From Candidatus Latescibacterota bacterium (GTDB lineage: Bacteria; Krumholzibacteriota; Krumholzibacteriia; WVZY01; JAKEHA01), in NCBI GenBank assembly GCA_963707635.1, contig OY970173.1, positions 2,801,489-2,865,488 on the forward strand: a DNA stretch of 64,000 bases, given 5' to 3'. A program made the translations under genes and the position numbers. This document shows, one piece after another, positions 12,906 through 47,529 of the stretch (position 1 is the first letter of the stretch; every line of letters starts with the position of its first letter). Below the pieces are notes generated by a model that saw nothing but the letters and a program-made list of their open reading frames with translations, was not told where the DNA came from and searched no databases.

Positions 12906-12931
12906 GTGGCTCACCAAAACACGAGCAGAAA

Positions 12932-23488: not shown

Positions 23489-23533
23489 GGTTGGTGGAGG
23501 CGGCGGCGAGCGAAGCGAAGCTCAGAGCCGACC
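23489..23533 (-). repeat. Class II ssrA-3'-end-like 45-bp repeat, copy B2 (identical to 28973..29017)
   Basis: ggttggtggaggcggcggcgagcgaagcgaagctcagagccgacc read identically at both loci; the minus-sense 3' end ...CGCCGCCUCCACCA matches the ssrA acceptor end. Confidence 0.7.
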
Positions 23534-23563
23534 TCTGGCTTGTGTTCTACACAAACAGAGTTT

Positions 23564-23737
23564 GGTGGAGGAGGCGGGAATCGAACTCTGTCGATGGAGA
23601 AACTCTAACACGTTGATGGCGTGTGGTTTCGGATGCTACGAGTTGAAACATCGCCAGTTAGGTGACCGCTGCTTCTCCACTCCAGTCCTCTGCAGTCTTC
23701 TGGAATCGACCCACGTCATGGAGACATTTTGGAGACG
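23564..23737 (-). repeat. Class I ssrA-3'-end-derived repeat element, copy B (~175 bp)
   Basis: Core tggtggaggaggcgggaatcgaac has one mismatch to the ssrA 3' end; arm conserved with copies A and C up to ggagacattttggagacg; preceded by the small inverted repeat tgtgttctacacaaacagag. Confidence 0.7.
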
Positions 23738-23760
23738 CCACGCAGCGTTCGCTCGGGACG

Positions 23761-25245
23761 TTAGTGCTGCGTGGGCAGATCTGAGGAATGTAGCAGCTCC
23801 ACAACCAGCCGCTGCTCCTCGTTGCCTCCCTCGTCGTGCCACCGAACGCGCGTGATCTGGATGGACCGGTTCGTGATCCACAGCGGATCGGACACGGCCC
23901 ATTCGGAGCCATCGAGTAGGCACCACGAATCACCCGTCGCGGCGTCCGCAATCCACAGGTCGGCCGCAATGGTGTCGCCCACGTGGTGCAGCCGTGTCGG
24001 ACGCGAGAATGCAATCCACCGCCCATCCCGGCTCCAGGAGAATTCATGCGACGCGCCCACCTTCAGACTGTCGATAACCGTTACTCGGGCATCGGGAACG
24101 GTGACAGTGTAGAGAAGGGCTCCGCTCCACTTGCGGGAGATGCCGCTTACTGCGATGGTGCGTGAGTCCGGCGACCACTTCGATTCAGTCCCGTCGGTGA
24201 GGTCGCCTTCCATGACGATCTTGGACGCCGTCACGTCGACCACCGTCAATTGATAGGGATTCAGATGCGATTTCCAGACCACGCAGCTAAGGCAGCGGCC
24301 GTCCGGCGACCATTGAGGCAAGGACGCCGGCGTCTCTAGCAAACGGCGCGATTCTCCAGTCGCGACATCGACGATCTCCACGTAACCCCTGCGCGAAACA
24401 ATCACGACGCGTGCAACCAGAGAGTCCGGCCCAGGCACGTAGTTTCGGTCCGACGACGACCGGAGATAATCCGTTTTTGTTTCGAAGGGGACGTCGTCAG
24501 CCCACGGCTCTCGCAAAGCCACGACTTTCCACGGATTCACGGACGCGTGATTGCGGACTGCGCTGCACTTGACGGCAGTCAGGAGCAGACTTTCGTCGCC
24601 CGGCGCAAACTCTCCAACGGCGACATCGTCCAATCCGAAGCTCGCCCCGTTCTTCCCCACGACGCGGAAGCCAAACTGAACCTTCTTGCCGGCCCACGCC
24701 GACAGATCGACAAAACGTTCGCGGTAGATGAATGGATCCGCCGGTGACTCATTGCCAGTGATCGACCAGAGAGACGTCCAGCCTGTCGTACCCGCTTCAC
24801 GAATGTTGAGCGATCCATCGAGCACACTCGACCACTGCGTATTCCCGGACCAGGAAAACTTGATTGCCTTGTCGGTCGCTCCGAGCGCCACCACCGGCGT
24901 GATCAGCCACTCGTCGATAGCTCTCGGTGACTCGCTTCCGACATACGCCGCCGCGCTCCCGGTTCCAATGTTGTCGGGATCGGTGGTTCGGTGCCAGGCG
25001 TGCGGCAGAGGCAGGCCTGCGCTCTTCGTGCTCCAGCCCGGCGGCGGAAAGGTTGCGCCCTCGAATCCCTCCGCCAGTGTGGCTGGCGGTACACGTCCCG
25101 CCGGTACCGCCGACTGGGATCGTTGGGAAGCAGCCAACGGCGTGCATTCTGGTACTCCGTGGGCGTTGCCGACGATGAACGTGGGAACGCTGAGGAGAAG
25201 CCCGGCAATAAACGCCTTCATAAGGAGTGTCATGGGTCGCTTCAT
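23761..25245 (-). CDS. Secreted PD40 / TolB-like beta-propeller repeat protein
   Basis: Signal peptide (MKRPMTLLMKAFIAGLLLSVPTFIVGNAHG); repeated WSPDGR / WSPDSR / WSRDGR motifs. Start uncertain (ATG at 25296, 25245 or 25233). Confidence 0.6.
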   Translation of the reverse strand: MKRPMTLLMKAFIAGLLLSVPTFIVGNAHGVPECTPLAASQRSQSAVPAGRVPPATLAEGFEGATFPPPGWSTKSAGLPLPHAWHRTTDPDNIGTGSAAAYVGSESPRAIDEWLITPVVALGATDKAIKFSWSGNTQWSSVLDGSLNIREAGTTGWTSLWSITGNESPADPFIYRERFVDLSAWAGKKVQFGFRVVGKNGASFGLDDVAVGEFAPGDESLLLTAVKCSAVRNHASVNPWKVVALREPWADDVPFETKTDYLRSSSDRNYVPGPDSLVARVVIVSRRGYVEIVDVATGESRRLLETPASLPQWSPDGRCLSCVVWKSHLNPYQLTVVDVTASKIVMEGDLTDGTESKWSPDSRTIAVSGISRKWSGALLYTVTVPDARVTVIDSLKVGASHEFSWSRDGRWIAFSRPTRLHHVGDTIAADLWIADAATGDSWCLLDGSEWAVSDPLWITNRSIQITRVRWHDEGGNEEQRLVVELLHSSDLPTQH

Positions 25246-25544
25246 TGGATCATCGTGCGAGTGCGACAGGTCGCTGCATAACCTTCGCCATTTCACGACC
25301 AGAAGGGACCGCTGAAAGGTGCTGCAGAGGTGCGTTCAATGCAGAGTGTCCGCGGAGTAGTTAGCTAACGCGGCGATGCCACCCAAGCGACGACTAGATA
25401 CGAAGCGGCGGGAACTGCGGAAACGCGGATTTCGTCATGGAAACGGCGAGCGGCATAAGTTGTTCACGCTTCAGCGGTTGGTTACAATGGCACGCAAGTC
25501 GCGCTTCGCGCGAGCACTCATAACTCTATACGAATACACAAGAA

Positions 25545-25719
25545 ATGGTGGAGGCGGCGGGAATCGAACCCTGTTGCGAACGAAACATTAACCTGATGAT
25601 GGCGTGCGATTTCGGTTGTTGTGAGTTGAGAGATCGCAGGTTAGTTGACCGCCGCTTGTCCACTTCAGTCCTCTTGAGTCTACCGGACTCAACCCACGTC
25701 ATGGAGACATTTTGGAGAC
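25545..25719 (-). repeat. Class I ssrA-3'-end-derived repeat element, copy C (~175 bp)
   Basis: Core tggtggaggcggcgggaatcgaac identical to the ssrA 3' end; arm conserved with copies A and B; lies in the divergent region between the PD40 gene and the M36-like protease gene. Confidence 0.7.
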
Positions 25720-25914
25720 GGGTTTGACCTTCGCCCTTGTGCGGAGTTACTTTTATGGTGAATTGCCAGTCGGTTCTCGCCCGTCTCCGGGCAAAGATGT
25801 GGGCTTGAAAGTGTCCACCGTTCGGATTACGCTGCCTGCATTCCGGCCCGGTGATTTCATTCCGGAGACCTCCTTTCTTGCGGTTAACTCCAGGCGGCCA
25901 TCGGCCCAAGGAGC

Positions 25915-28836
25915 GTGACGCGCTTGCCAACTCCGCGCGATTTCATCCTGCACCGCAGTTTCTTCGCCATGCTCGTACTGGCGGTCCCGCTCTTCCCGGC
26001 GCTGCTCTCCGCGGCAGAGAACGCGACCTCGACGGCCGTTCCTGCTCCGGCCGCGCCCGTGCGCCATGCGCCGTCGATTGATCGCAACGCCATCCAGGCC
26101 GCCGTTCAGGAATTCCAGTCTTCCCAGTCACCCCGCTGGACGGTGTCGTGGGACCCGGTGAGCGGTCTCCCTCGAATGCTGACTGGCCAGACCACGCGCT
26201 CCTACGGGGCCACATCGGAAGCCGCCGCGCTGGCATTCGCTGGCGAGCATCGGATGCTTCTGGGCTTGATCGATGAGAAACACTCGGTGCGCCTGGTTGG
26301 AACGAAACTCATGCGCACCCAATGGCGCGTAACGCTGCAACAACAATTCGCCGGGATCGACGTCCTCGATGGGACGATTCAGGTGGTCGTGGACGGGAAA
26401 GGCCGCGTCCTATATGTGACAAACTCGGCGTGGCCGGTTTCCGCCGTCGATTTCTCGATCGATGTCGGTGAGAGCGCCGTACGCTCCTCGATCGCCCGGC
26501 GGTTCAGTGGCGAAGACGTCACCTACAATGACGGACCCCGCCGCGTGATCTACCCATCCGGGAATGGGCGGCTCGCGTATGTGGCGTACGTGCTCGCCGG
26601 CCCGCAGGGGCCGTGGCGCGTCCTCGTCGATGCGCGGACGGGCGGCATCCTGGAAGCGCGGCGGTTGGTGGTCGAGGAGAAGCAGGCCCCATCGCAGGAT
26701 GCCGCGACGCAGCAGAATCCGTCGCGCCCCGCGGACGTCGCCGACGTCAATGATCCGTGTGCCCGCGAGTGGAACGAGATGGGGGGAGCCGCGGTGATCG
26801 AGGTCCCGGATCCTGCAGACCCGTACTATGTCGACGTAAAGGTTGGCGTGCCCGGTCTCGGCGAGTTTCAACCGCAGGGGATCGGGACGTCCGCTGCGGG
26901 GATCAAACTCTTTCCGTGCATTTATTACACAATCCAGGTCGACTACAACGTGCACACCTGGGGTGGCTGGAATACTCCCAACGGCTTCCGTGATGTCTTC
27001 TTCGTCAACGTCAACAACATGAACTGGTACTGGAATCTCGGGCTCATTCCGCAGGCGCAGCTGTTCTGTACGACCGCCTACAACGACATGGGACTGATTC
27101 TCCCCGGCAAGGCCTGGGTCGCCGGCGGGAATCGATGCGGCGACGGCCTCTTGTGCGATCTGGTGGGATCGTTCCAGTTCGACATCATCGAACCGAACAA
27201 CACCAAAGAGCTCTATCTCTCGGTTGGGATGCAGCGGGTCTCAGTTTCGTGTCCGTCATGGGGGACCATCCGGGTCAAGATCATCGCGAAGTCCCGTGTC
27301 TTCGACCCCAACCCGGTGACCACGCTGAACCAGCCCTTCACGGACCAGGATGACGCCAACGAAGCCGTTCCCTGCGACGCGTACATCGGCGTCGACCTTC
27401 CGAATCTTACCCCGCCGCCGCCCGGGCAACCCTGGACTCTCACGGGCGACTATTGCGAGATCGTGGACATCACGGCCCCTGCCAAAACGTACACCTCGGC
27501 GCGCGACCCGAATTTCCCCTATCTGCGCCGGTGCGACATGTTCGAAGCGGTGAATGCCTACTACCACATCACGACCAACCAGCTCTACATCCAGTCTCTC
27601 GGTTTTACCGGCCTTTCCGGCATCAACAACCGCGCGCATCGCGTGGACCCGCATGGGATGGATCACGTGGACAACTCGCAATACGTCGGTAATCCCCCGG
27701 GACTTGGCTACATCGAGTTCGGCGAGGCCTTTGTCGACGACGCCGAAGACGCCGACGTGATCCTCCACGAGTACGGCCACTCGATTCAGGACAACCAGAC
27801 ATTCGGCTATTACCTCGGGACTGGCGCAGGCAACGGCTTCGGCAACGAGACGTGGGCGATGGGCGAGGGGTTCGCCGACTACTGGGCGTGCAGCAACTTT
27901 GCCGACGAGAGTACCGCGAGCGGCTTCGACCCCGCCGCGTACGGCGAGTGGAACAAACAGAACATGACCGGGACCCGCAGGGTCGACAAGAACAAGATCT
28001 ATCCGACGAATATGGAAAGCGAAGAACACGCCGACGGAGAGATCTGGTCGCGCACGCTGTGGGACCTCTTTCAGGCAGTCGGGAAGACGACCTCTGACGT
28101 GCTCATACTGGAGAGTCACTATCTCGTTCCTTCACGTCCATTGTTCAGCGACGGCGCCAAGGCGTTGATTGCAGCGGACGCAGTTGCCAACGCGGGCGCC
28201 AACAAGAATACGATTGTCGCCATCTACGTCGATCGCGGCATCTTCCGTAGTCTCGCCGTTGCATCGTCGCCCATCAACGGCGTGCCGATCACCGTGTCGA
28301 GGCAGGACGTACGTGGCGATCAAAGTGATGCCACCGACTTCAACCGGACGTATGCGTGGGGGGACTCGGTATCGCTCGACGCACCGCCCTCGTTTGGCGA
28401 CCGTACTTTCACGCGCTGGGATGTGGACGGCGTCGCGGGTGCGAACGGCGACTTGACCGCCGTCGTGCGCATGGACGAATCGCCACCATTTCACTCGGCC
28501 ATCGCTTACTACGATACTCTCCCTGGCGACCCCGGCACGCCCGTCCGTGACATCCCGAAAGCCCTGGCGCTGCTTCAGAATCACCCGAACCCGTTCAACC
28601 CGACGACGACGATCACGTTCACGTTGCCGAGGGAGATGGAGATCGAGCTTTCGGTGTTCGACGTGGCGGGCCGGCGGGTGGCCACACTCCGGAGCGGACG
28701 CGAACGGGCAGGCGTCTATGCCGTGGTGTGGGATGGACGGAGCGCGGCCGGTGAGACGGTGAGCTCGGGCGTGTACATCTACCGGTTGCGAGCGGGCCAA
28801 ACGGTTCTGACGAGGAAGATGACACTACTCAAGTAG
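25915..28836 (+). CDS. Secreted zinc metalloprotease, fungalysin/thermolysin-like (M36/M4-like), with T9SS-type C-terminal sorting domain
   Basis: HExxH site VILHEYGHSIQ with a downstream Glu motif GEGFADYWA, resembling fungalysin HEYTHG...EGWSD. C-terminus LLQNHPNPFNPTTTITF...VFDVAGRRVATL...WDGRSAAGETVSSGVYIYRL...RKMTLLK. GTG start at 25915 (ATG alternative 25969). Confidence 0.65.
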   Translation: MTRLPTPRDFILHRSFFAMLVLAVPLFPALLSAAENATSTAVPAPAAPVRHAPSIDRNAIQAAVQEFQSSQSPRWTVSWDPVSGLPRMLTGQTTRSYGATSEAAALAFAGEHRMLLGLIDEKHSVRLVGTKLMRTQWRVTLQQQFAGIDVLDGTIQVVVDGKGRVLYVTNSAWPVSAVDFSIDVGESAVRSSIARRFSGEDVTYNDGPRRVIYPSGNGRLAYVAYVLAGPQGPWRVLVDARTGGILEARRLVVEEKQAPSQDAATQQNPSRPADVADVNDPCAREWNEMGGAAVIEVPDPADPYYVDVKVGVPGLGEFQPQGIGTSAAGIKLFPCIYYTIQVDYNVHTWGGWNTPNGFRDVFFVNVNNMNWYWNLGLIPQAQLFCTTAYNDMGLILPGKAWVAGGNRCGDGLLCDLVGSFQFDIIEPNNTKELYLSVGMQRVSVSCPSWGTIRVKIIAKSRVFDPNPVTTLNQPFTDQDDANEAVPCDAYIGVDLPNLTPPPPGQPWTLTGDYCEIVDITAPAKTYTSARDPNFPYLRRCDMFEAVNAYYHITTNQLYIQSLGFTGLSGINNRAHRVDPHGMDHVDNSQYVGNPPGLGYIEFGEAFVDDAEDADVILHEYGHSIQDNQTFGYYLGTGAGNGFGNETWAMGEGFADYWACSNFADESTASGFDPAAYGEWNKQNMTGTRRVDKNKIYPTNMESEEHADGEIWSRTLWDLFQAVGKTTSDVLILESHYLVPSRPLFSDGAKALIAADAVANAGANKNTIVAIYVDRGIFRSLAVASSPINGVPITVSRQDVRGDQSDATDFNRTYAWGDSVSLDAPPSFGDRTFTRWDVDGVAGANGDLTAVVRMDESPPFHSAIAYYDTLPGDPGTPVRDIPKALALLQNHPNPFNPTTTITFTLPREMEIELSVFDVAGRRVATLRSGRERAGVYAVVWDGRSAAGETVSSGVYIYRLRAGQTVLTRKMTLLK

Positions 28837-28900
28837 TCCGCGTCTGATCGAAGCGGCGCACAGAGCCAACGCATGGTCCTCGTTCGACGAGAACAGGGTT

Positions 28901-28936
28901 TGGCGGAGGCAGCGGCTGGCGCGGAACGCGCTGCTC
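28901..28936 (-). repeat. Degenerate tRNA-3'-end-like fragment (E3) next to ssrA
   Basis: Minus-sense GAGCAGCGCGUUCCGCGCCAGCCGCUGCCUCCGCCA: T-arm-like hairpin plus a CCUCCGCCA end resembling the ssrA acceptor end. Confidence 0.3.
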
Positions 28937-28972
28937 AAAGCCCACCTCAGGTTTGTGTCTTACACAAACAGA

Positions 28973-29017
28973 GGTTGGTGGAGGCGGCGGCGAGCGAAGC
29001 GAAGCTCAGAGCCGACC
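28973..29017 (-). repeat. Class II ssrA-3'-end-like 45-bp repeat, copy E2 (identical to 23489..23533)
   Basis: Same 45-mer as B2; lies 28 bp from the ssrA 3' end; preceded by the inverted repeat tttgtgtcttacacaaacagag. Confidence 0.7.
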
Positions 29018-29044
29018 GGAGGCTTACTGTTAGTAAGCATGGGT

Positions 29045-29416
29045 TGGTGGAGGCGGCGGGAATCGAACCCGCGTCCGAAGAAGCAGCCGCAACGGTTACT
29101 ACGTGTGTAGTCCGTGGTGATTTCTCATCTCCGTACCCACCGCGGACGAAAGTGTAACGGAGACCAGCCCGGTAGTTTCTCGCGCCTCAGCCCCAGACAT
29201 AGCCTCGGCGCCAGCCCCCAGAGTATGACGCCCACTCACCGGCCCTGGAGACCCAGCCGGTGGGGACGGGAGCCTAAGCTAGCTTAGCTAGTTAGGCAGC
29301 CAGTGCGACGTTGTTGTCAGCACTTGAATTGGTGCCACCTGGTTTTACGAGGCTTGTGACCTGGCTCGACACGCAACCGGTACGCCCATCTTCCCCGTCG
29401 AGACCTGTTCGCCCCC
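29045..29416 (-). ncRNA. ssrA: tmRNA (transfer-messenger RNA, SsrA), standard one-piece form
   Basis: Minus-sense 5' end GGGGGCGAACAGGUCUCGACGGGG resembles the tmRNA 5' consensus. 3' end GCGGGUUCGAUUCCCGCCGCCUCCACCA is a perfect T-arm, 7-bp acceptor stem pairing with the 5' end (G3:U70, discriminator A) and encoded CCA. Internal tag reading frame ...GCU GAC AAC AAC GUC GCA CUG GCU GCC UAA encodes ...ADNNVALAA-stop. Confidence 0.9.
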
Positions 29417-30469: not shown

Positions 30470-32859
30470 CTACTTCAGCAATAGCATCTTACGTGCGAGC
30501 GTCGCTCCGCTCGCGTTGAGACGGTAAAAGTAGATCCCGCTTCCCACGCGCCGGCCTTCATTATCGACACCGTCCCATTCCGCGACATAGGTCCCGGCAC
30601 GGCGATGCGTGTCGAGTAGCGAACGGACGAGGGCGCCTCGCGCGTCGTAAATACGCAGCGAGACCGGGCCGTCGCGTTCCACGCCGTAAGAAATCCTGGT
30701 GGTGGGATTGAACGGATTGGGGACGTTCTGATCCAGGTGGGTGCGAGCCGGCGTTGTGCCGGCGCCCGTCACCGCGCCCGGCGTGAGCAGCCGCAAAGGC
30801 GCTCTCGTTGTCGTGCAAATCGAACGCGCTGACCTTGTAGTAGTAGCCGCTCGAGGGTGTCCACGCGGGATCGAGGAACGACTCCGACGCCGGCGTTGCG
30901 ATGCGATTACCCGCATCCGGGACAAAGCCCGCCGTGCTTCCCCGATACACGCCGTAATTCGCGAGATCGTGCTCGTCGTTTGGCTGCCACGACATCGAGA
31001 GTCCGGCAGGAGAATGTGATTGTGCACCCGCGAGATTCTGAGGCGCGGCCGGGGCAAGGTTATCGACCGAGTATCCGCTGTCTGGCGCGCTGTCGTAATA
31101 CACCGACGGCGTCGTGGTCTGCGCCATTACGAAGTACACGTTGTACGGAGTGACCGCAACCGTCTGGTCAGCCTGCGTAGGTGCGAGCACGATGTAGTCG
31201 CTCGACTGCTGCCGCGCGGGAGCGCTCGCGACCGATTCCCACAACGCTGCTGTGGACACCGCATCCAGCGAGGGCTCGCGCCAGATCCGGTGACCTTCCC
31301 ATTCGATAGCGCTCGACTTCCCTACCACGCCCTCGCTTTGGATCTGCGCAACGAGAGCTGCATTATCGATGCGCCGAAACACGTAGTACGTGAGCACACC
31401 CGGCGAAGCACTCGCGATGTCCTCTCCCGATCCCTGGAAGTAGACACGCACCCAGCCACCCTGATCTCCGGGCACATCGACGATGTTGTGAATCTCCGGC
31501 TTCTGGCGGCTGAATCGGGCGATGAAGATATCCTGGCCCGATGCTGTGAGATTGCTTCCCCCAAAATTGGTCGTACCGTTGACGTAGCCGGTCATGACGA
31601 CATTGTTCGCCGGGTCGGTGACGACCCGGTTGGCATGCTGATCAGACGCGTCACCGTACGTCGCGTTGAACAGAAGATTCCCGTCGTTGTCGAATCGAAC
31701 GAGAAAAATGTCGGTGCCACCGGCACTGGTGAGGGCTCCGGTTCCAAAATCCACGCTGCCCGCGTAGTAACCCGACCACGCCACCGCACCGCCGGCATCC
31801 ACCGCGGGCCCATTGGCGTTTTGCGCGCCGGCATCCCCGAAGCGTCTTGCTCCAGACATGATTGCCCGCGGCATCCAGCCTGGCGATGCAGATGTCGTTG
31901 CCACCTGCCGACGTCAGCCCGCCGCCGCCGAAATCCACCGTCCCCTGGAATGTTCCCGTGACGAAGACGTTACCCGCCGGATCGAATCCGATTCCATTTC
32001 CGATCTGGCTGCTGGCATCCCCGAAGCGCTTGCTCCACACGTGCACGCCCGCGCTCGTGAACCGCGCAACAAAGATGTCGTTGCTTCCTCCGCTGGTAAT
32101 GGTGCCACCACCGAAGTCGGCGCTGCCCGCCATGTTCCCCGCAATTCCAACGTCTCCGTCCGCACTAACTGCCACCCCGATCCCATTCTGGCCCCCAGTC
32201 GCTCCGAAGCGTTTGCTCCACAGATGATTTCCGGCGGGATCGAACTTCACCAGGAATATGTCGGCGCCGCCCCCGCTCGTGAGCGGCCCCCCACCGAAGT
32301 CCACGGTTCCATTCATCAATCCGGTCATGTAGATGTTGCCGCTGCCGTCGGTGGCGATGCCGTTTGGAATCTGGTCGGTCGCGTCGCCAAATTGCTTGCT
32401 CCACTGATGCGCGCCGGCGGAGTTGAATTTACCGACAAAAATGTCGGTCAAGCCGGCGGAACTGAGGGTCGAACCTCCCAGGTTCACGGATCCTGACACT
32501 TGCCCGGCCAGAACGACGTTGCCGGAAGGGTCACAGGCCAGTGCGGTGCCGTATTCGGACATTGTCGTGCTTTGGAAAAAGCCCACGCTGTAGAGATGGG
32601 TCCCGCCAGCGTTGAATTTGGCGAGATACGGTGCATCGTCCGTGCTTCCGACCGTGAAGTCCCCCCCGCCAAAATTGACCGTCCCCCGAAACATGCCCGT
32701 GATCCATACGTTGCCGCTCGGATCCACGGCAATTCCGCGGCCGTCCTGTGTGTTGACATCGCCAAAGATCTTGCTCCAGCTATGCTGGAGAGCCGGGGCA
32801 GCCTCGAGACGGACGGAATTGAGGAGAAGAAGCGAGAGGACGACGGGACGGATTCGCAT
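30470..32859 (-). pseudogene. Secreted beta-propeller (SBBP-like) repeat protein with fibronectin-III-like region and T9SS-type C-terminal domain; reading frame broken twice
   Basis: Three track ORFs (31651..32895, 30561..31904, 30470..31057) are consecutive parts of one protein: signal peptide MRIRPVVLSLLLLNSVRLEAAPA, ~8 repeats of the D-x-x-G-N-x-x-x-T-G...FGGG type, a YSVDNLAPAAP segment, and C-terminus ...NVPNPFNPTTRISY...IYDARGALVRSL...WDGVDNEGRRVGSGIYFYRL...RKMLLLK. Frame switches near 31845 and near 30790. Confidence 0.65.
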
Positions 32860-33112
32860 GGGAGGCGCCCTTTCTGCACAGGTGGTCTTGTGCAATACGG
32901 GCGCCTCAAAGAGTCGCCAACGACGCCCGAGAGGGATTAACTATATCACAGATACGCGCAGGTTGGCACTGCAGCTGCGGGCACCGTCAAGTCAATGGTG
33001 AAGAAGAAAGGCCACCGCCGGGCAGCCAGCCGGGCCCGCCGGTGGTGTGATAGAATGCGCACGCCAGCGCATGCCGCATTCCCACGACAGGTGATCCCAA
33101 AGGCCGTGACCC

Positions 33113-34255
33113 ATGACACACTCCCCCGACGCGAGCCGTTCTCTTCCCGTTCTCCGAGCTTTGATCGACGCGGTGGACCACGAGGTCCTCGAACTTCTAT
33201 CGCGGCGCAACGGACTGGTGGCCGAAATCGCCAGCTACAAGCGCCACCACCAGGTGGCCATCCGCGACCCGCGCCGCGAGAGCGAGATCATCGCCGACCG
33301 GCGCGCTCGATCTACGCCGCTGGGCCTCCAGCCCGACGTCGTCGAAAGCATCTACCGATTGATCCTGTGGGCGAGCCGCGACCGGCAGGCGTCGCTGCGC
33401 GCGCAGGTCCCGCTCGACGTGGAGACAAAGACCGTCGCGGTGATCGGCGGCCACGGGGCGATGGGGTCGTGCATGGCCGATCTCTTCGCCGACCTGGGCC
33501 ACGCGGTCATGATCGCCGACCTCGACACCGACCTCTCCCCCGAGGAAGCAGCCCGGGAAGCGGACGTGGTCGTGATCAGCGTCCCGATCGACGTCACGGC
33601 GGAGGTGATCCGGCGCCTCGGCCCGCTGGTCCGCAAGGACGCGCTCTTGATGGACGTCACGTCGGTGAAGACGACGCCGGTTCGCGCCATGCTCGAGGCG
33701 TCCAGGGCGGCGGTGGTCGGCACGCACCCCCTCTTCGGCCCGTCGGTGCATTCGCTCCAGGGGCAGCGCGTGGCACTCGTTCCCGGCCGCGGGGACGACT
33801 GGCTCGCATGGCTGCGGACGATGCTCGAGGCGAGGGGACTCAATGTGGTCGATACCACCGCGGAGGCGCACGACCGCGCCATGGCGGTGGTGCAGGTGCT
33901 GACCCATTTCACGACCGAGGTCATGGGCAGTACGCTGGCCGGTCTCGGCGTGCCGCTCGAGGAGACGTTGCGTTTCACCTCGCCGGTGTACCTGATGGAG
34001 CTGCTCATGACGGCCCGGCACTTCGCGCAGTCGCCTGACCTCTACGCATCCATCCAGATGTCCAACCCGGAGTCGGGCCGCATTGCCGATGCGTTCCTCG
34101 AGACGGCGCAGCGGCTGCGCGAGAACGTAGCCCGCCGCGACCACGCCGCCTTCGAGACGGTGTTCCGCGAGGTGCACGACTATTTCGGAGACTTCACGGA
34201 ACGGGCGCTCGCCCAGTCCTCGTTCCTGATCGACCGCCTGGTCGAACGGACGTGA
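33113..34255 (+). CDS. tyrA: Bifunctional chorismate mutase / prephenate dehydrogenase
   Basis: N-terminal chorismate-mutase-type helix (LRALIDAVDHEVLELLSRRNGLVAEIASYKR) followed by a Rossmann motif VAVIGGHGAMGS and prephenate-dehydrogenase-like remainder. Confidence 0.75.
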   Translation: MTHSPDASRSLPVLRALIDAVDHEVLELLSRRNGLVAEIASYKRHHQVAIRDPRRESEIIADRRARSTPLGLQPDVVESIYRLILWASRDRQASLRAQVPLDVETKTVAVIGGHGAMGSCMADLFADLGHAVMIADLDTDLSPEEAAREADVVVISVPIDVTAEVIRRLGPLVRKDALLMDVTSVKTTPVRAMLEASRAAVVGTHPLFGPSVHSLQGQRVALVPGRGDDWLAWLRTMLEARGLNVVDTTAEAHDRAMAVVQVLTHFTTEVMGSTLAGLGVPLEETLRFTSPVYLMELLMTARHFAQSPDLYASIQMSNPESGRIADAFLETAQRLRENVARRDHAAFETVFREVHDYFGDFTERALAQSSFLIDRLVERT

Positions 34256-34354
34256 GCACCTCCCAAAAAACTCGTGACGGATCCTGCCCCGGCACGTCTA
34301 ACCGGGAAACGGGCTCCATGCCCGAAAGCCAGCCACCGAACCGGAGGGCCTCCC

Positions 34355-35359
34355 ATGTTTCGACGTCTCGTGCTCCTGACCGTGCTGACCCTGATTGCCG
34401 GCTTCCGCCCGGCACAGGCCGACATCACGACGGGCCTCATCGCCCGCTACCCGTTTGACGGCAACGCCAACGATATCAGTGGAAACAACAATCACGGCTC
34501 GTTGGTGGGTGCGGTGGCGTCCACCACCGATCGTTTCGGGTTGCCCGACCGGGCCTATGCGTTCAACGGCCTGAATACCTATGTGCTGGTCCCTGCCTCG
34601 GCCAGCCTGAACTCGCCGACCACGGCTTGCACGCAGGCGGGATGGACGCTGCAATCCGGAGTGAGTAGTGTGGGATCGGGCTTCAATCCGCTCCTCATGA
34701 AGAGCAATAGCGGTGAGAATGCGTTCATGTACCGGATGATCACGAACCCCACCTACGTGGGCGCCGCATTCAACAACTGGAACACCGCCCAGAGCGCCGG
34801 GCAGGCGACACCGCTCAACGAGTGGCACCACTTCGCGACCGTGTTCAACGGCGCTACCGTCAGGTACTACTACGACGGCGCGTACATCGGGTCGCAGCCG
34901 ATGGTGATGACGATCACCCCGGACAACCGCCCGCTCACCATTGGCGCCGATGTGCCCGGTATTCTCGAGATCTTCAACGGCAAGATCGACGATGTGTCCA
35001 TCTACAGTCGTGCACTCACCGACGAGGACATCGTCGAGCTCTACAATCAGGCGACGCCGACTGCCGTGTCCCAATCGACGCCGCCGTTTTCGCTGGGCTA
35101 CAGCGTTCCCAATCCCAGCGGCGGCGAAAGCAGCGTGGAGTTCACCCTCGACTCGGAGCAGTTCGTCCAGCTCGACGTGTTCGATGTGGCCGGGCGCCGC
35201 GTGCGCGTCATGGAATCCGGAGTTCGTTCGGCCGGAGTCCATCGCGCGACGTGGGATGGGCGCCGGGACAACGGGAGCCATACGCCGTCGGGCGTCTATT
35301 TCTTTCGTCTCCACAGTGGAAACCACGTGCTGACGAGCCGAATCGTTCGGGTGCGGTAG
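34355..35359 (+). CDS. Secreted LamG / concanavalin-A-like lectin domain protein with T9SS-type C-terminal sorting domain
   Basis: Signal peptide (MFRRLVLLTVLTLIAGFRPAQA); LamG-like block (DGNANDISGNNNHGSLVG...WHHFATVFNG...GKIDDVSIYSRALTDEDI); C-terminus ...VPNPSGGESSVEF...VFDVAGRRVRVM...WDGRRDNGSHTPSGVYFFRL...SRIVRVR. Confidence 0.7.
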   Translation: MFRRLVLLTVLTLIAGFRPAQADITTGLIARYPFDGNANDISGNNNHGSLVGAVASTTDRFGLPDRAYAFNGLNTYVLVPASASLNSPTTACTQAGWTLQSGVSSVGSGFNPLLMKSNSGENAFMYRMITNPTYVGAAFNNWNTAQSAGQATPLNEWHHFATVFNGATVRYYYDGAYIGSQPMVMTITPDNRPLTIGADVPGILEIFNGKIDDVSIYSRALTDEDIVELYNQATPTAVSQSTPPFSLGYSVPNPSGGESSVEFTLDSEQFVQLDVFDVAGRRVRVMESGVRSAGVHRATWDGRRDNGSHTPSGVYFFRLHSGNHVLTSRIVRVR

Positions 35360-42226: not shown

Positions 42227-42430
42227 GGTTCCTCCACCTTCTCGCATGAACATGAAAGGCCGGACAATCGCCACAGTACGCCGATACAGGGACCGAGTCA
42301 CGACTTTTTCCGCGGGCCGTGGCCACAAGACCGCGACCCCATGCGACCCGCGTTTTTTCGTATTCCCTTTCATTTTCCCCTGTGATAAGTTTTCAACCGA
42401 TTCGTGACTGTAACCCTTGGAGGTCAACGC

Positions 42431-42871
42431 GTGAAACGCTTTTGCATTCTTGTCACTGGACTGTTTCTCGTCGCCACCGAAGCCGCGCCTGCATTTGCCG
42501 GCGTCGGGTTTCACATCGGGGGAACGATCGACCCGGATATGTTCCTGATCGGCGCACGCTTCAGGAGCCGCCCCCTCGCAGAGGCGATTTACGTGGTCCC
42601 CAACGCCGAGGCGGGCTTCGGCAGCGACATCCTCATGATCGGCGGCAACCTGGACGGCTACTATTCCTTCAAGACCAGCTCTGAGCTCCGGCCGTATATC
42701 GGCGGCGGCATCACGCTCAACTGGTTCGACTTCGACAACGGCGGGAGCGACACCGAGTTTGGCGGGAGCATTCTCGGCGGAATCTATGTCAAACCAACGC
42801 TCTTCTTCGAGACCAAGTGGGGACTGGGAGACGTTCCCGACTGGAAGTTCTACGTCGGCTGGAACAAGTAG
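42431..42871 (+). CDS. Small outer-membrane beta-barrel-like protein
   Basis: GTG start preceded by GGAGG; signal peptide (VKRFCILVTGLFLVATEAAPAFA); Gly/aromatic-rich strands ending ...WKFYVGWNK. Confidence 0.55.
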   Translation: MKRFCILVTGLFLVATEAAPAFAGVGFHIGGTIDPDMFLIGARFRSRPLAEAIYVVPNAEAGFGSDILMIGGNLDGYYSFKTSSELRPYIGGGITLNWFDFDNGGSDTEFGGSILGGIYVKPTLFFETKWGLGDVPDWKFYVGWNK

Positions 42872-42916
42872 GCTGGCGTCCACCTGCTCCAGGGGTCCGA
42901 TAAGCCCCGAGACAAA

Positions 42917-42945
42917 CGGCCCACGTCGAAGGACGCGGGCCGTTT
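42917..42945. terminator. GC-rich hairpin plus T-run, immediately followed by a tRNA-Lys 3'-end-like decamer
   Basis: cggcccacgtc-gaag-gacgcgggccg followed by ttt, then cagttggtgcg, which matches the trailer and 3' terminus of tRNA-Lys. Confidence 0.4.
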
Positions 42946-42966
42946 CAGTTGGTGCGTCCCCCAGCG

Positions 42967-43959
42967 TCAGCGATTGACGAGCCCCAGCATCTTCGGATCG
43001 TAGCGACCGCCCACGACGGCGCCCTTCGGCGAGGCCTCTTCGATGCGCGCGATATCCGCGTCGCCGAGCTCGACATCGACCGCCGCTATGTTCTCTTCCA
43101 ACCGCGCGATGCTGCTCGTACCCGGAATCGGGATGATGTCGTCGCGCCGGTGCAGCAGCCAGGCCAGGGCGAGTTGGGCCGGCGTGCAGCCTTTCTTCGC
43201 CGCCACTTCCCTTACCCTTTCGGCAATCGCCAGGTTCTTCGCAAAATTTTCGCCCTGGAACCGCGGGTTGTTGCGACGCCAGTCGTCGGGACTCAAGTCC
43301 TCGACCCCTCGAAAGCGTCCACCCAGGAATCCGCGGCCGAGGGGGCTGTACGCGATCAGCGCAATGCCTAGCTCCTCCAGGGTCGATAGCATCTCGAGTT
43401 CCGGGTCCCGGGTGAACAGAGAGTATTCATTCTGCACCGACGCCAGCGGATGAACCGCGTGCGCGCGGCGAGCCGTGGCTACCGACGGCTCCGACAATCC
43501 GATGTGCCTCACCTTTCCCTCGCGCACGAGCTCTGCCATCGCACCGACGGTCTCCTCGATCGGCACGGACGTGTCGACGCGGTGCAACTGATAGAGATCG
43601 ATGTATTCGACGCCCAGGCGTTTGAGCGAAGACTCGCACGCCTGGCGCACGTACTTCGCGCTGCCGTCGACGGGGCGCCCGGCGGCTGCCCCTCCGCGCG
43701 CGAAACCGAACTTCGTGGCGAGGATCACACGCTCACGCCGGCCCCTGATGGCCTTGCCCACCTTGAGCTCCGAGTCGCCGTAGATGTCGGCGGTGTCGAG
43801 GAACGTGAGACCCAGATCGAGGGCACGGTGAATGAGCGCCATGGCCTCATCGTCGTTCTTCACGCTGCTGGTATACGTATCCGCGATGCCAATGCTCATG
43901 CAGCCGAGACCCAGAGCCGACACCTCGGGGCCGCTGCGGCCGAGTTTTCGATGCTTCAT
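42967..43959 (-). CDS. Aldo/keto reductase
   Basis: LGCMSIG...DTADIYG...ILATKFG...DLYQLH pattern typical of the aldo/keto-reductase family; 330 aa. Confidence 0.8.
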
Positions 43960-44046
43960 ATTGCTGCCTCCTGGTCACACGTATGATATCGGCACAGAAT
44001 CGAAAATGCAAACGGCCACGTCCGCGCCGACGTGGGCCGTTTTAGT

Positions 44047-44106
44047 TGGTGCGCCGCGAAAGACTCGAACCTTCAACCACCTGATCAAGAGTCAGATGCT
44101 CTACCA
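44047..44106 (-). repeat. tRNA-Lys 3' fragment (~60 nt) with its own upstream hairpin
   Basis: tggtgcgccgcgaaagactcgaaccttcaaccacctgatcaagagtcagatgctctacca matches the 3' 60 nt of tRNA-Lys (47455..47529) with two mismatches, then diverges; preceded by hairpin cggccacgtc...gacgtgggccg plus tttt. Confidence 0.7.
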
Positions 44107-44270
44107 CGCACGCTGGCCCTCGGGCCTGCGTGCGTGATAGACTTATATCCAACGCGAGAGCCTCCTACCGACGCTCCCGCCTGATCGTCGACATCCGAAC
44201 GTCGGCCGGGTGTAGTTATGTGTTCTTCGGCGGCCACCGACTCCGCCCCCGAATACGCAGGAGGCCGTCC

Positions 44271-46682
44271 ATGCGCTCGTTTCTCCTCTCCCTGTCGATC
44301 ACTGTCAGCCTGTTTCCCGTCGCCGCGAGCGCCCAGTGGGGGCTCGACGGGGCTCCGATCTGCACCGCGTGGAACAGCCAGTACTCCCCGGACATTGTCT
44401 CCGACGGCGCGGGCGGAGCGATCATTGCCTGGTACGACTACCGTTTGAGCAGCCTGGATATCTACGTGCAGCGGGTAAACGCTCTAGGGATTCCGCAGTG
44501 GACAGCCAACGGTGTCGCACTGTGTTCGGCCGCCAACGAACAGTACTACCCGGTCGTCGTCTCCGACGGCGCGGGCGGAGCGATCGTCGCGTGGTACGAC
44601 GGCCGCGGAAGTAGCTACGATATCTACGCGCGGCGAATCAACTCGTCGGGGGTTCCCCAGTGGGCAGCCGACGGCGTCGCCCTCACAACCGCGGCGAACG
44701 GCCAGTTCAGCCCCACCATAGTTTCCGATGGTGCCGGAGGAGCGATCGTCGCATGGTACGATTTCAGCAGCGGATCCGATTACGACATCTACGCGCGGCG
44801 GATCAACGCGTCGGGAACTCCCCAGTGGACCGCCAACGGTGTCGCCCTCTGCACCGCTCTTAACGACCAGGCCTATCCCAACCTCGTCTCCGACGGCGCG
44901 GGCGGAGCGATCGTCGTGTGGAGTGACTATCGATCCGGCGCAGGCGACATCTACGCGCGACGGATCAATGCATCGGGGACGCCGCAATGGACCGCCAACG
45001 GCGTCGCCCTTTGCAGCACGGTCGGAGATCAGGCGCACCCCGCCATCGCCGTGGATGGCGCGGGCGGAGCTATCGTGGCATGGGACGACCGTCGCGGCGG
45101 ACCGAACTCGGATCTCTATATCCAGCGCGTGAACGCGTCGGGAACGCCGCAGTGGGCCCCCAACGGCGTCGCCATGTGCACCGCCATGAACGATCAGGAG
45201 TACCCCGCCATCACCCTCGACGGAGCGGGCGGTGCGATCGTGGCCTGGGAGGACTTCCGCAGCGGATTCGACCACGACATTTTCGCCCAGCGGATGGTCG
45301 CCTCGGGATCTCCCCAGTGGGCCGATAACGGCGTTGCCGTTGCCATCGCACCGAACTCGACATATCTGCCTACCATGGTTTCCGATGGCACCGGTGGTGC
45401 AATTCTAGCGTGGCAGGACGACCGCAACGGGTTCGACTTCTCCGACGTCTACATGCAACGGCTCGATGCGCTCGGGAACGCCCAGTGGACCCCCAACGGA
45501 GCCGTGATCTCGAGCGCGGTCGGTCACCAATACGACCTGGCGTTGATCACCGACGGTGCCGGAGGAGCGACGGTCGCCTGGACGGATGACCGCAGCAGTT
45601 TCTACAGCACCCACATCTACGCCCAGCGAGTCGAAGATCACTATGGGTACTGGGGGCACCCGGAGCCCGTCGTCAAGTCGGTCGCCGACATTCCGAAAGA
45701 CAACGGCGGAAGGGTCGCACTCAACTGGACGCCGAGTGGGCGCGACCTCTCGAACCCGCGCACGGTCGATCATTACACGATCTGGCGCGCGGTCGACGTC
45801 ATCCCGGCCCCGGTCTCGAACGCGACCGCGGTCTTGACCGACATTGCGAATGTGGGCGAGACCGCGGACGGACCGGTGTACGCGGTACTTCCTTCTTTGT
45901 CCGGCTACTACTGGGAGCTGGTGGGAACGCAGTCCGCGAACGCCTGGTCCGGGTACTCGTTCTCCACCTCGACGCGTGCCGATTCGGTCGCCGGGAATTC
46001 GGGAACCGAGACCTTCATGGTGGCGGCGCACCTCCAGTACGACTCCTATGTCGCGTTCCCGTCGAACGTGATGAGCGGCCACTCCGTCGATAACCTGGCT
46101 CCCGCCGCCCCGCTGATGCTCACAGCGCTGCGTGCCGGCGCCGACGTGCACTTGCAATGGAATCGCGTGCGCGTCCCTGACCTGCGCGACTACTCGCTGT
46201 ATCGCGCCACGTCCACCGGTGTGACCCCCGTGCCGATCAACTTCCTCGCGTCGGCCGAGGAGACGTTGCTGGTCGACGCAGGCGCGCCGTCCTCCGCGCT
46301 TTACTACATCGTGACCGCTATCGACGTGCACCACAACCAGGGTCCACCGTCGAATGAGGCCAGTGTCGGTGCGCTGACTGGCATCGGAAACACACCACCG
46401 ATCGCCGCCCTGACCGTGCTCGAGAACGTGCCAAATCCGTTCAATTCCCGAACGACATTGCGCGTCGGCCTGCCGCGGGCGAGCGAACTGGAGGTCGAGG
46501 TGTACGACGTCTCCGGCAGGCGGATCCGGGACGAACGGACCGCGGCGCTCGGGGCGGGTTGGCGAGAGGTTCCCTTCGAGGCGCGGAGCACAAACGGGAG
46601 TGTGCTCCCGAGCGGAGTCTATTTCTATCGCGTGACGGCAGCGGGACAGTCCGTCAGGGGCAAGATGGTGATCGCCAGGTAG
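44271..46682 (+). CDS. Secreted tandem-repeat protein (about nine ~55-aa repeats) with FN3-like region and T9SS-type C-terminal sorting domain
   Basis: ATG after GGAGG; signal peptide (MRSFLLSLSITVSLFPVAASAQ); repeats of the form ...PQWTANGVALC...VSDGAGGAIVAW.D.R....DIYA.R.NASG.; a HSVDNLAPAAP segment; C-terminus LENVPNPFNSRTTLRV...VYDVSGRRIR...SGVYFYRV...GKMVIAR. Confidence 0.7.
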   Translation: MRSFLLSLSITVSLFPVAASAQWGLDGAPICTAWNSQYSPDIVSDGAGGAIIAWYDYRLSSLDIYVQRVNALGIPQWTANGVALCSAANEQYYPVVVSDGAGGAIVAWYDGRGSSYDIYARRINSSGVPQWAADGVALTTAANGQFSPTIVSDGAGGAIVAWYDFSSGSDYDIYARRINASGTPQWTANGVALCTALNDQAYPNLVSDGAGGAIVVWSDYRSGAGDIYARRINASGTPQWTANGVALCSTVGDQAHPAIAVDGAGGAIVAWDDRRGGPNSDLYIQRVNASGTPQWAPNGVAMCTAMNDQEYPAITLDGAGGAIVAWEDFRSGFDHDIFAQRMVASGSPQWADNGVAVAIAPNSTYLPTMVSDGTGGAILAWQDDRNGFDFSDVYMQRLDALGNAQWTPNGAVISSAVGHQYDLALITDGAGGATVAWTDDRSSFYSTHIYAQRVEDHYGYWGHPEPVVKSVADIPKDNGGRVALNWTPSGRDLSNPRTVDHYTIWRAVDVIPAPVSNATAVLTDIANVGETADGPVYAVLPSLSGYYWELVGTQSANAWSGYSFSTSTRADSVAGNSGTETFMVAAHLQYDSYVAFPSNVMSGHSVDNLAPAAPLMLTALRAGADVHLQWNRVRVPDLRDYSLYRATSTGVTPVPINFLASAEETLLVDAGAPSSALYYIVTAIDVHHNQGPPSNEASVGALTGIGNTPPIAALTVLENVPNPFNSRTTLRVGLPRASELEVEVYDVSGRRIRDERTAALGAGWREVPFEARSTNGSVLPSGVYFYRVTAAGQSVRGKMVIAR

Positions 46683-46766
46683 CGCCGCGCCGCCTCAAAT
46701 GCTGCCGGGTCGAAAAGTGCCACAAGAGTGACGGGCCACGCCTGTGTCGACGTGGCCCGTTTCAGT

Positions 46767-46807
46767 TGGTGCGCCGCGAAGGACTCGAACCTTTAGCCAC
46801 CTGATTA
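46767..46807 (-). repeat. tRNA-Lys 3' fragment (~41 nt) with its own upstream hairpin
   Basis: tggtgcgccgcgaaggactcgaacctttagccacctgatta matches the tRNA-Lys 3' part with two mismatches; preceded by hairpin gggccacg...cgtggccc plus gttt. Confidence 0.7.
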
Positions 46808-46938
46808 TGCGTGTGTCCGGCTGACACCCCTCAACTTGATAAATCGTGCGGGGCACGCTATGCTGAACTCCGGATGCCAGACGGCCCCGGGCACGTTGGC
46901 GCATAATCCATCACGCAGGTCACCGGAGGAATCCCGTT

Positions 46939-47391
46939 ATGAAGACAATGCTTCGCCTGTTTCTCATGCTTGCAAGCGTCGTGACGCTTGTCGTCCATCT
47001 CGGTTGTTCCAACTCCGGTGGCACTAGCGCCGTCGGCAAGACCCTCTATGAGCAGTTGGGGGGCGAAGACGGCGTAACCCGACTCGCCAACCAGTTCGGC
47101 ACCAGCCTCCAGGCCGACCCCGATCTGTCCCAGCTCTTGAGCGCAGAGGTGATTGAAAACGCCAAGGCCGGCCTGACCAACGACATCAAGAAGGCGAGCA
47201 ACATGAGCGCTGGCGACATGTCACTCGACAGCGCACTCAAAGACCAGAAGCTCGATGCCAACACCCTCGCCGGCGTCAACAATGCAATCGTCCAGGCCGC
47301 GAAGGGCATGAACCTCAGCCAGGCGACGACCGATGGCCTCACGAACCTGATCAAGCCGCTCGCCCACAGTGTGCTGGAGCCGAAATTGTAG
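46939..47391 (+). CDS. Lipoprotein, function unknown
   Basis: Signal peptide plus lipobox (MKTMLRLFLMLASVVTLVVHLGC). The N-terminal LYEQLGG motif recalls globin-like proteins, but no well-placed proximal His, so no globin call. Confidence 0.5.
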   Translation: MKTMLRLFLMLASVVTLVVHLGCSNSGGTSAVGKTLYEQLGGEDGVTRLANQFGTSLQADPDLSQLLSAEVIENAKAGLTNDIKKASNMSAGDMSLDSALKDQKLDANTLAGVNNAIVQAAKGMNLSQATTDGLTNLIKPLAHSVLEPKL

Positions 47392-47407
47392 GAGGCTCGC
47401 CAGGACA

Positions 47408-47451
47408 GGAGAAGAAACGGCCCGCATCTTTCGATGCGGGCCGTTCTTGTT
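47408..47451. terminator. Bidirectional intrinsic terminator between the lipoprotein gene and tRNA-Lys
   Basis: cggcccgcatc-tttc-gatgcgggccg with T-run on the plus strand (ttcttgtt) and U-run on the minus strand (revcomp of ggagaagaaa). Confidence 0.55.
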
Positions 47452-47454
47452 AGT

Positions 47455-47529
47455 TGGTGCGCCGCGAAGGACTCGAACCTTCAACCACCTGATTAAGAGT
47501 CAGATGCTCTACCATTGAGCTAGCAGCGC
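47455..47529 (-). tRNA. tRNA-Lys (anticodon CTT), CCA encoded
   Basis: Hand-folded from the minus strand: acceptor GCGCUGC / GCGGCGC, anticodon arm UCUGA-CUCUUAA-UCAGG (anticodon CUU), T-arm GAAGG-UUCGAGU-CCUUC, discriminator A, CCA. Confidence 0.85.

Follow-up and report, generated by a model that had tools for sequence, protein, structure and literature searches.

A probable additive flexible genomic island built of small single-gene units behind the tRNA-Lys gene of a Krumholzibacteria-like bacterium

What kind of process leaves several partial copies of a tRNA gene lined up behind the intact one, each followed by a hairpin and separated from the next by a single gene? The question is raised by the tRNA-Lys(CTT) gene of a Candidatus Latescibacterota bacterium, analysed here in a window of 64,000 nucleotides (nt) of contig OY970173.1 (positions 2,801,489 to 2,865,488; 63.7% guanine plus cytosine, GC), to whose own numbering all positions below refer. 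An earlier note on this DNA had proposed a special gene-cassette-like process of acquisition or shuffling. Because tandem partial tRNAs behind tRNA or tmRNA genes are already described as a hallmark of additive flexible islands and of decayed integrative elements (PMC4898812; PMC4383910; bioRxiv 10.1101/2020.12.28.424599), no such special process is needed; a process moving cassettes in trans is possible and is weighed below. The DNA downstream of tRNA-Lys is probably an additive flexible genomic island, in which the three partial copies are displaced 3' ends, that is, attR-type scars.

The minus strand carries the genes for tRNA-Pro, tRNA-Arg, tRNA-His, the single-stranded DNA-binding protein (SSB) and tRNA-Lys(CTT), with ssrA, the tmRNA gene, 18 kb beyond (ARAGORN, Rfam); the Rfam scan of the window found no RNA families besides tRNAs and tmRNA. 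The one intact tRNA-Lys(CTT) lies at 47455..47529 on the minus strand (ARAGORN; Rfam tRNA, 71.5 bits) and would be the integration target, on the attB/attL side; its gene sequence is 100% identical in many relatives. Behind it follow three direct 3'-terminal copies of 41-44, 60 and 7-10 nt, all truncated on the 5' side only. Fragment 2 (46764..46807, minus) is a 41-nt copy running from the anticodon loop to CCA, plus an AACT trailer; its last 28 nt are 100% identical to the gene, and mismatches, two or three in number, occur only in the 5' part. Fragment 3 (44042..44106, minus) comprises 60 nt from the D-loop to CCA, starting within the D-arm, with 2 mismatches and an AACTA trailer. Fragment 4 (42947..42956, minus) is a vestige, CGCACCA plus ACT, beginning 10 nt past the stop codon of an aldo/keto reductase (AKR) gene; its junction GCACCAACTGAAACGGCCC is exactly common to fragments 2 and 3, and the junction GCACCAACTNAAACGGSCC is common to fragments 2-4. 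Direct, 5'-truncated copies that keep the 3' end are the signature used for mapping islands in tRNA and tmRNA genes (tDNAs) (PMC4383910).

The fragments reported in the earlier note were recovered by sequence searches. A 28-nt probe (tRNA-Lys 3' end plus AACT) matches the window only at 47452-47479, 46764-46791 and 44044-44071, with 0 matches expected by chance, and blastn-short returns two copies, one of 60-65 nt at 44042-44106 (97%) and one of 41-44 nt at 46764-46807 (95%). Also, a profile built from the tRNA-Lys 3' end and terminator of the window and its relatives gives E-values of 3e-27, 2e-22, 2e-21 and 5e-7 for the four copies, the last being fragment 4 with its hairpin, and no further significant match in the window, the next best having E = 0.55. 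This sub-significant match (33124-33196, minus) contains AACGGCTCGCGTC and adjoins the boundary between an SBBP region and a chorismate mutase/prephenate dehydrogenase gene; either chance or a scar in advanced decay could account for it.

Loci of close relatives, designated by L numbers, were gathered through SSB homologs and a metagenome scan for the tRNA-Lys 3' 25-mer; the named relatives are Candidatus Krumholzibacteria, and the more distant ones Latescibacterota and Eisenbacteria. In most relatives, as in the window, the tRNA-Lys 3' end is accompanied by a characteristic hairpin. All four copies in the window have a stable one behind them (-21.5 to -28.6 kcal/mol, z -3.6 to -7.5). T1 (47414..47445; -28.6 kcal/mol, z -7.5) follows the intact gene and is terminator-like on the plus strand; T2 (46731..46762; -25.7 kcal/mol, z -4.7) follows fragment 2 and contains the family motif AACGGGCCACGTC; T3 (44008..44040; -21.5 kcal/mol, z -3.6) follows fragment 3, is terminator-like and precedes a promoter-like site for the AKR gene; T4 (42914..42945; -28.1 kcal/mol, z -5.0) follows the fragment 4 vestige and has the motif on both arms. 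The earlier description of a hairpin plus U-run after each copy thus stands for all the hairpins and for the U-runs of T1, T3 and T4, which are good, and only weakly for that of T2, which is poor.

The four hairpins are homologous, consisting of AACGGSCCRCRTC, a loop and GAYGYGGSCCGTTT, and the changes in their stems are compensatory. The same hairpin family stands behind the intact tRNA-Lys in most relatives, T2 being closest to the terminators behind the intact tRNA-Lys of L095/L100 and T3 resembling those of L102, L104 and L108. Judging from their sequences, therefore, the hairpins descend as copies from the native tRNA-Lys terminator of the lineage and have since diverged, with T4 probably the oldest displaced one. 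The spacing between tRNA and hairpin agrees as well: that of L081, ACCAACTGAAACGG, equals that of fragments 2-4, and the intact tRNA-Lys of the window has a spacer 4 nt longer, as in L091 and L103. Since both hairpin family and spacing match the intact genes of relatives, each fragment with its hairpin resembles a former functional tRNA-Lys 3' end. This bears out the earlier interpretation of the anatomy as displaced 3' ends from serial site-specific integration, with direct 5'-truncated copies that retain native terminators.

Could the repeats instead be an ordinary dispersed family of terminators or of elements like repetitive extragenic palindromes, or decayed tandem tRNA duplicates, with no relation to gene acquisition? 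For the genes on either side, the hairpins would plausibly terminate transcription in both directions. T1, T2 and T4, read on the opposite strand, lie directly 3' of convergent genes: T1 appears to double as the terminator of a convergent lipoprotein gene, T2 lies 49 nt beyond the stop codon of a convergent repeat-protein gene, and T4 is the predicted terminator of a convergent gene for an outer-membrane beta-barrel-like protein (42404-42871). However, a 13-nt hairpin motif is confined in the window to T1-T4 and is, across 19 related loci, always adjacent to tRNA-Lys or to a fragment of it, and the copies contain 41-60 nt of true tRNA sequence, in agreement with the earlier note, which had derived them from tRNA-Lys and not from a common terminator family. 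The motif restriction and the profile results contradict a generic terminator family. Decayed tandem tRNA genes are likewise rejected, since the copies are truncated on one side only and relatives have just one tRNA-Lys at the locus; the intervals, moreover, hold unrelated genes. An origin of this kind is accordingly extremely improbable.

The intervals between the copies hold one complete gene each, as had been noted, and each is a clean single transcription unit according to the analysis of open reading frames (ORFs) and Pfam domains. The first (46939..47391, plus) encodes a 150-aa secreted or lipoprotein-like protein with a signal peptide ending in LGC and a third-position GC content (GC3) of 0.81; a promoter-like site was predicted beside fragment 2 (46836-46864), and orthologs stand directly behind tRNA-Lys in L091, L103, L107 and L109. 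Residues 35-78 of this protein give a sub-threshold match (E = 0.009) to Bac_globin, in the N-terminal part of the bacterial-like (truncated) globin family. The second gene (44271..46682, plus) encodes an 803-aa protein with eight ~54-aa repeats (families D1 and D2) and a FlgD_ig/Por_Secre_tail C-terminus of the type IX secretion system (T9SS) type. Its orthologs in L081, L096 and L110 (~79% nt identity) lie elsewhere in the variable region, without flanking fragments, and its divergence outpaces that of the core in every pair. The stretch homologous to L096 comprises the gene and ~140 nt upstream, ending 8 nt past the stop codon at one end and ~25 nt from fragment 3 at the other, where a strong hairpin abuts the 5' edge of fragment 3 (44100..44141; inverted repeat I6, 18 bp, -34.8 kcal/mol, z -7.7). 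This hairpin sits where the homology to the promoter region of the L096 gene ends; its 3' arm takes in the tRNA-derived TGGTAGA, and it has no T-run. The third gene (42967..43959, minus) encodes the AKR (330 aa; PF00248, E = 5e-85), with orthologs near tRNA-Lys in L087 (71% aa identity) and in L091, L103, L107 and L109 (73-79% nt identity).

Past the AKR gene, relatives L087 and L109 carry a DUF3224 gene 10-14 nt further on. In the window, homology stops at the AKR stop codon, followed by the vestige and T4, and the operon partner is missing, so that a deletion may have cut a once longer fragment down to the 10-nt vestige. A later trimming deletion explains the vestige just as well as a distinct crossover does, which leaves the earlier argument from fragment lengths to different integrases weak.

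Is the site itself variable, as an island would require? The synteny Arg...His-SSB-tRNA-Lys is kept among relatives at 75-92% nt identity and gives way to complete divergence past the terminator. The 23 loci with an intact tRNA-Lys show 12 unrelated downstream contents, and even where the core is ~90-92% identical (the window, L081, L104 and L083-86) the downstream content differs in each case; genomes with a core identity of ~90% account for three different contents. Further downstream, a block of FGase, GCS2, RimK, C39 and TrmB genes is common to the window, L089/L090 and L110, so that the variable zone is framed by core genes.

The most informative comparison is with L091, L103, L107 and L109, in which tRNA-Lys and terminator are followed by the lipoprotein and AKR genes, with the repeat-protein segment absent. 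SSB identity to the window is 81% for L091/L103, which belong to one population, and 77% for L107/L109. The 2.87 kb of the window that hold fragment 2, T2, the repeat-protein gene, the hairpin, fragment 3 and T3 correspond to 141 nt in L091. In L091/L103 a decayed tRNA-like stretch, AATGAGGCGGCTCGAAATCGACATCGGGGCGCA, stands where fragment 2 does in the window; it aligns in register from the conserved region upstream of the lipoprotein gene and has in common with fragment 2 a change from GGTT to GGCT. L107/L109 show a weaker resemblance to a tRNA fragment at the same position. With its last 28 nt identical to the gene, fragment 2 may be a hybrid site with a crossover inside the repeat, its 5' part old and its 3' part fresh. 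The earlier note had named relatives with the same genes in the same order and no fragments as evidence that would tell against a cassette interpretation. The outcome is mixed: four relatives do keep the lipoprotein-AKR order and show no recognisable intact fragments, but the repeat-protein segment is absent from them and L091/L103 retain a decayed fragment, so that the comparison supports, and does not refute, insertion or deletion at att scars; the region upstream of the AKR gene is too diverged between the window and the L091 group to order insertion against deletion.

Against L103 the lipoprotein unit is 86.8% identical at the nt level, the tRNA with T1 98.3% over 120 nt, and SSB 81%; against L107 the relation is reversed, the unit (66%) having diverged faster than SSB (77%). 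These identities suggest exchange at the level of single cassettes.

Matching enzymes do exist in the environment of the lineage. Two metagenome contigs, L097 and L106, are phage-like (small ORFs, an amidase and, in L106, lower GC) and encode homologous tyrosine integrases that are 39% identical (Pfam E = 2e-28 and 4e-19). In both, the 3' end of the integrase gene abuts a copy of exactly the tRNA-Lys 3' end, 45 nt long in L097 and 54 nt in L106, with element DNA on both sides, which is the attP configuration. Scans of viral contigs gave no match for the tRNA-Lys 3' 25-mer or for an arm motif of the ssrA array described below.

Relatives also offer integrase-less examples. Four overlapping contigs of one relative (L102, L104, L096 and L110; core ~90%) carry tRNA-Lys with its terminator, a low-GC island of 3.25 kb (58% GC), a 48-nt fragment with a native terminator, and then chromosomal genes that include the repeat-protein ortholog. 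The island encodes a PD40 protein, an Amidase_3 protein and a 183-aa ORF, with no integrase, and looks like a decayed element at an intermediate stage. Locus L092 (contig JACXTT010000273.1) has three 48-nt fragments ~2 kb apart, each with 1-3 ordinary genes (an amine oxidase; a Gp49-type toxin pair and a hydrolase; then a beta-lactamase-family gene) and no integrase. Intervals with a single gene recur behind tRNA-Lys in L009 (kinase), behind ssrA in L016 (FlgD_ig-tailed protein) and behind tRNA-Arg in L081 (DUF192). Fragments of relatives tend to begin at the anticodon loop, which leaves 45-48 nt.

From these observations a sequence of events can be proposed. In integration at tDNAs the target is regenerated and a displaced fragment marks the far end (PMC4383910). 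Here, DNA circles bearing their own tRNA 3' end (attP) would recombine with the tRNA-Lys gene or with an earlier scar; each integration would rebuild tRNA-Lys and push the prior 3' end, with its terminator, downstream, so that the most distal scar, the vestige with T4, would still adjoin old chromosomal DNA. The enzymes would be tyrosine integrases of phage-like elements that target exactly tRNA-Lys in this lineage. The three intervals would be what deletions left of larger elements, or integrase-less segments from the arrays of relatives re-inserted in trans, and decay together with selection for compactness could have produced the small clean units, with the L102 island as an intermediate stage. 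Directly observed are the repeats with their homology to tRNA-Lys and its native terminator, the high variability of the site in relatives, the presence or absence of the repeat-protein segment, and elements with a matching attP and integrase. We infer from the comparisons above that integrases made these junctions, as well as the order of events and the manner in which the integrases were lost.

Several observations weigh against an island of this origin. The attP sites of L097/L106 lack the native terminator family that accompanies every copy in the window; simple integration of such phages is therefore not how the window units came in. Neither in the intervals nor among 51 window ORFs examined with Pfam was an integrase, a pseudogene of one, or another recombinase or mobility gene found; the set takes in every ORF between 6.5 and 49.3 kb but not the syntenic core genes (50.4-53.2 kb) or four ORFs located at 60.7-63.9 kb; tblastn of the window with the two tRNA-Lys-targeting integrases (L097, L106) gave no match either. 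The absence of an integrase reported in the earlier note therefore holds for the ORFs examined. Fragment 3, with 60 nt, begins in the D-arm, outside both crossover classes of attP, anticodon-centred and T-stem region, that are tallied by Islander (PMC4383910). The base composition of the three cassettes is native and does not set them apart, so that the codon-usage or k-mer comparison suggested in the earlier note is uninformative here. Orthologs of the cargo occupy the same neighbourhood in relatives without fragments, and random decay of large elements would not be expected to leave intervals so clean and free of junk DNA. Finally, the site also varies in the close relatives L081, L082 and L087, none of which has fragments there; another process, replacement by homologous recombination, therefore acts on it as well.

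The last point raises the question of whether integrases are needed at all. Donor DNA from relatives, carrying the 3' half of the tRNA and its terminator, could enter by a RecA-dependent single crossover of the Campbell type or by homology-facilitated illegitimate recombination with tRNA and terminator as the anchor, and the crossover would duplicate the anchor. Such a route would account for the homology of ~90-100 nt that continues through the terminator and is longer than the identity at phage attP sites, for the native-like composition of the cargo and its orthologs in relatives, and for the many relatives that vary at the site without scars. However, the clustering of fragment 5' ends in relatives at the anticodon loop (45-48 nt) is what integrases produce, elements with a matching attP and integrase exist, terminators of only 70-85% identity are poor substrates for RecA, and circular donors would still need an origin. 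Recombination free of integrases is thus quite improbable as the source of these copies, and an additive island formed by integrases is retained as the preferred explanation.

The other question is whether the small units are decay products or move as they are. The same pattern recurs in the window at ssrA, where the array cited in the earlier note proved to be real and larger than had been described. Three 180-nt units, 79-82% identical to each other (12927-13106, 23558-23737 and 25541-25720, minus-strand sense), each consist of a ~155-nt arm unrelated to ssrA and then the last 24-26 nt of ssrA, from T-loop to CCA. Each arm opens with GTCTCCA, repeated every 11 nt in the manner of arm-type integrase sites, and the units delimit integrase-less intervals of about 3.4, 2 and 10.5 kb; the arm motif is absent from all related loci fetched.

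Gene-less repeats and shared cargo were also observed at ssrA. Directly behind the gene are two or three mini-repeats of ~71-75 nt (28843-29045), composed of a 17-19 nt copy of the ssrA acceptor end, a small hairpin and a spacer, of which a 33-nt piece recurs at 100% identity at 23501-23533 (within 23488-23541), beside another ssrA fragment. The sole gene of the 2-kb ssrA interval (23760-25242, minus; 493 aa) is homologous to both genes of the L102/L096 tRNA-Lys island: it matches the PD40 protein over residues 226-483 (47%) and, over residues 55-146 (62%), the C-terminal domain of the Amidase_3 protein. Different tDNA hot spots in related genomes therefore hold related cargo.

It could be, then, that terminator, single gene and tRNA fragment form an active, integrase-less cassette, a mobilisable module moved by an integrase encoded elsewhere: a circle would be excised through two att copies of an array and re-inserted at tRNA-Lys or at a scar, in analogy to cis-mobilisable elements (CIMEs) or integron cassettes. 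Site-specific recombination is common to this proposal and to the additive island; the two differ in whether the small units are functional mobile entities or products of decay. Circles derived from arrays would be expected to carry a native-type terminator, which is present on every copy, even behind the intact gene. The units are clean single transcription units with promoter-like sites of their own, integrase-less arrays recur in relatives, and in L092 a conserved arm of ~150 nt precedes each of the three fragments, as conserved 155-nt arms with the GTCTCCA repeat at 11-nt spacing do in the three ssrA units of the window. Homologous cargo at ssrA in the window and at tRNA-Lys in L102, the greater similarity of the lipoprotein unit than of the core to L103, and the hybrid look of fragment 2, with an old 5' and a fresh 3' part, fit as well. 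Against this, no circular or empty-site junctions were observed; arms like those of L092 were looked for upstream of the tRNA-Lys fragments of the window and none were found; the lipoprotein and AKR units are old, and in L107/L109 their divergence mostly parallels that of the core; the repeat-protein gene lacks att sites in relatives; and no integrase is known in the source genome, as far as the window ORFs examined tell. Mobilisation of such modules at tRNA-Lys is rather unlikely, and the same doubt applies to the broader proposal that tRNA-Lys and ssrA anchor integrase-less cassette arrays, some with a ~150-nt arm, moved by a recombinase encoded elsewhere. If true, ordinary chromosomal genes would be shuffled among related genomes by a tDNA-based counterpart of the integron/CIME principle.

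Other tDNAs and surface-protein genes of the region deserve mention. In the window, tRNA-Lys and ssrA are 18 kb apart (29045-57867 region), tRNA-Pro and tRNA-Arg 2.7 kb, and tRNA-Arg and tRNA-His 6.8 kb, the last two spacers being fragment-free; no 3' fragments of tRNA-His, tRNA-Arg or tRNA-Pro were found in the window, although insertions separate these genes. In Eisenbacteria (L002, L012, L013, L016, L069 and L048) Pro-Arg-His form a tight cluster, and the order there is SSB, tRNA-Lys, ~100 bp and ssrA. In L081, a close relative (SSB 95% aa identity), an intact tRNA-Arg (835-911) is followed 0.7 kb behind by a 46-nt 3' fragment of itself (1619-1664) that starts in the anticodon loop; the interval holds only the DUF192 gene, and the window has a different 388-aa gene and no fragment there. 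At least five large secreted proteins of the window share a FlgD_ig/Por_Secre_tail-type C-terminus (6-2897, 9764-12553, 25915-28836, 34274-35359 and 44271-46682). They comprise a multihaem or carbohydrate-binding-module-like protein, M6 and M36 peptidases, a Laminin_G_3 protein and the repeat protein, and several are located in tDNA-linked variable intervals. Two overlapping ORFs in different frames at 30561-32895 (minus), of 447 aa (no Pfam match) and 414 aa (SBBP beta-propeller repeats), resemble FlgD_ig-tailed proteins of relatives in patches and may represent a frameshifted surface-protein gene.

Taken as an additive island, the locus indicates that an uncultured, Krumholzibacteria-like lineage of the Fibrobacteres-Chlorobi-Bacteroidetes (FCB) group diversifies surface and accessory genes at tRNA-Lys and ssrA hot spots, by a mechanism that matches the one described for Alteromonas and Prochlorococcus. 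L097 and L106 provide candidate integrase/attP pairs for tRNA-Lys, which could be used as tools.

Among known systems, integron arrays resemble the locus in having single-gene units separated by a structured repeat that looks like a recombination site. Integrons, however, comprise an intI gene with attI and the promoter Pc, and attC sites between promoterless, co-oriented cassettes. No intI integrase for such a platform is present among the window ORFs examined, there is no attI, the boundaries are tRNA-Lys fragments with a terminator and not attC, and the genes lie in both orientations with promoter-like or conserved upstream regions of their own.

CIMEs are att-flanked segments without recombination or transfer genes that take part in accretion at tRNA-Lys-type att sites in streptococcal integrative and conjugative elements (ICEs); they occur in tandem with or without a helper element and are mobilised by an integrase supplied in trans. 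The structure seen here, att-like repeats and no recombinase, would fit a CIME-like arrangement, but no helper is adjacent and the units are much smaller.

The tycheposon islands of Prochlorococcus are tRNA-adjacent as well, with successive integrations pushing older elements inward, scattered partial tRNAs as remnants of older events and cargo left behind (bioRxiv 10.1101/2020.12.28.424599). Scattered partial tRNAs are the sole trait in common by which the locus could be assigned to them: the hallmark recombinase and replication module (primase/helicase) were not seen among the window ORFs examined or in the relatives fetched, and the integrase-bearing L097 and L106 look like small temperate phages.

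Closer parallels are found in the tDNA islands and tandem arrays catalogued by Islander (PMC4383910; Williams 2002 cited there). An intact, regenerated target is followed by direct displaced 3' fragments in both cases, tmRNA is targeted too, and fragment 2 and most fragments of relatives begin at the anticodon loop, one of the two crossover classes. The Islander definition demands an integrase gene per island, and none was found in the window intervals; also, these intervals are far smaller, the 60-nt fragment begins in the D-arm, and the 10-nt vestige, perhaps trimmed by deletion, fits neither crossover class.

The additive islands of Alteromonas (Lopez-Perez and Rodriguez-Valera, PMC4898812) share the use of the same tRNA- or tmRNA-adjacent site across relatives, cassette combinations that differ between close relatives, cassettes common to diverged backgrounds, and a partial tRNA direct repeat downstream of inserted cassettes. 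Correspondingly, content differs between close relatives at the conserved tRNA-Lys site, and the repeat-protein segment is present or absent at fragments 2 and 3. Unlike in Alteromonas, the units here are single genes of 0.65-2.7 kb, the scars keep the native terminator, the site has no integrase, ICE or mobilisable genomic island, and the host is an uncultured Krumholzibacteria-like lineage. The finding thus fits the established model and opens no new one; what is new is the lineage and the unusually small, integrase-less units.

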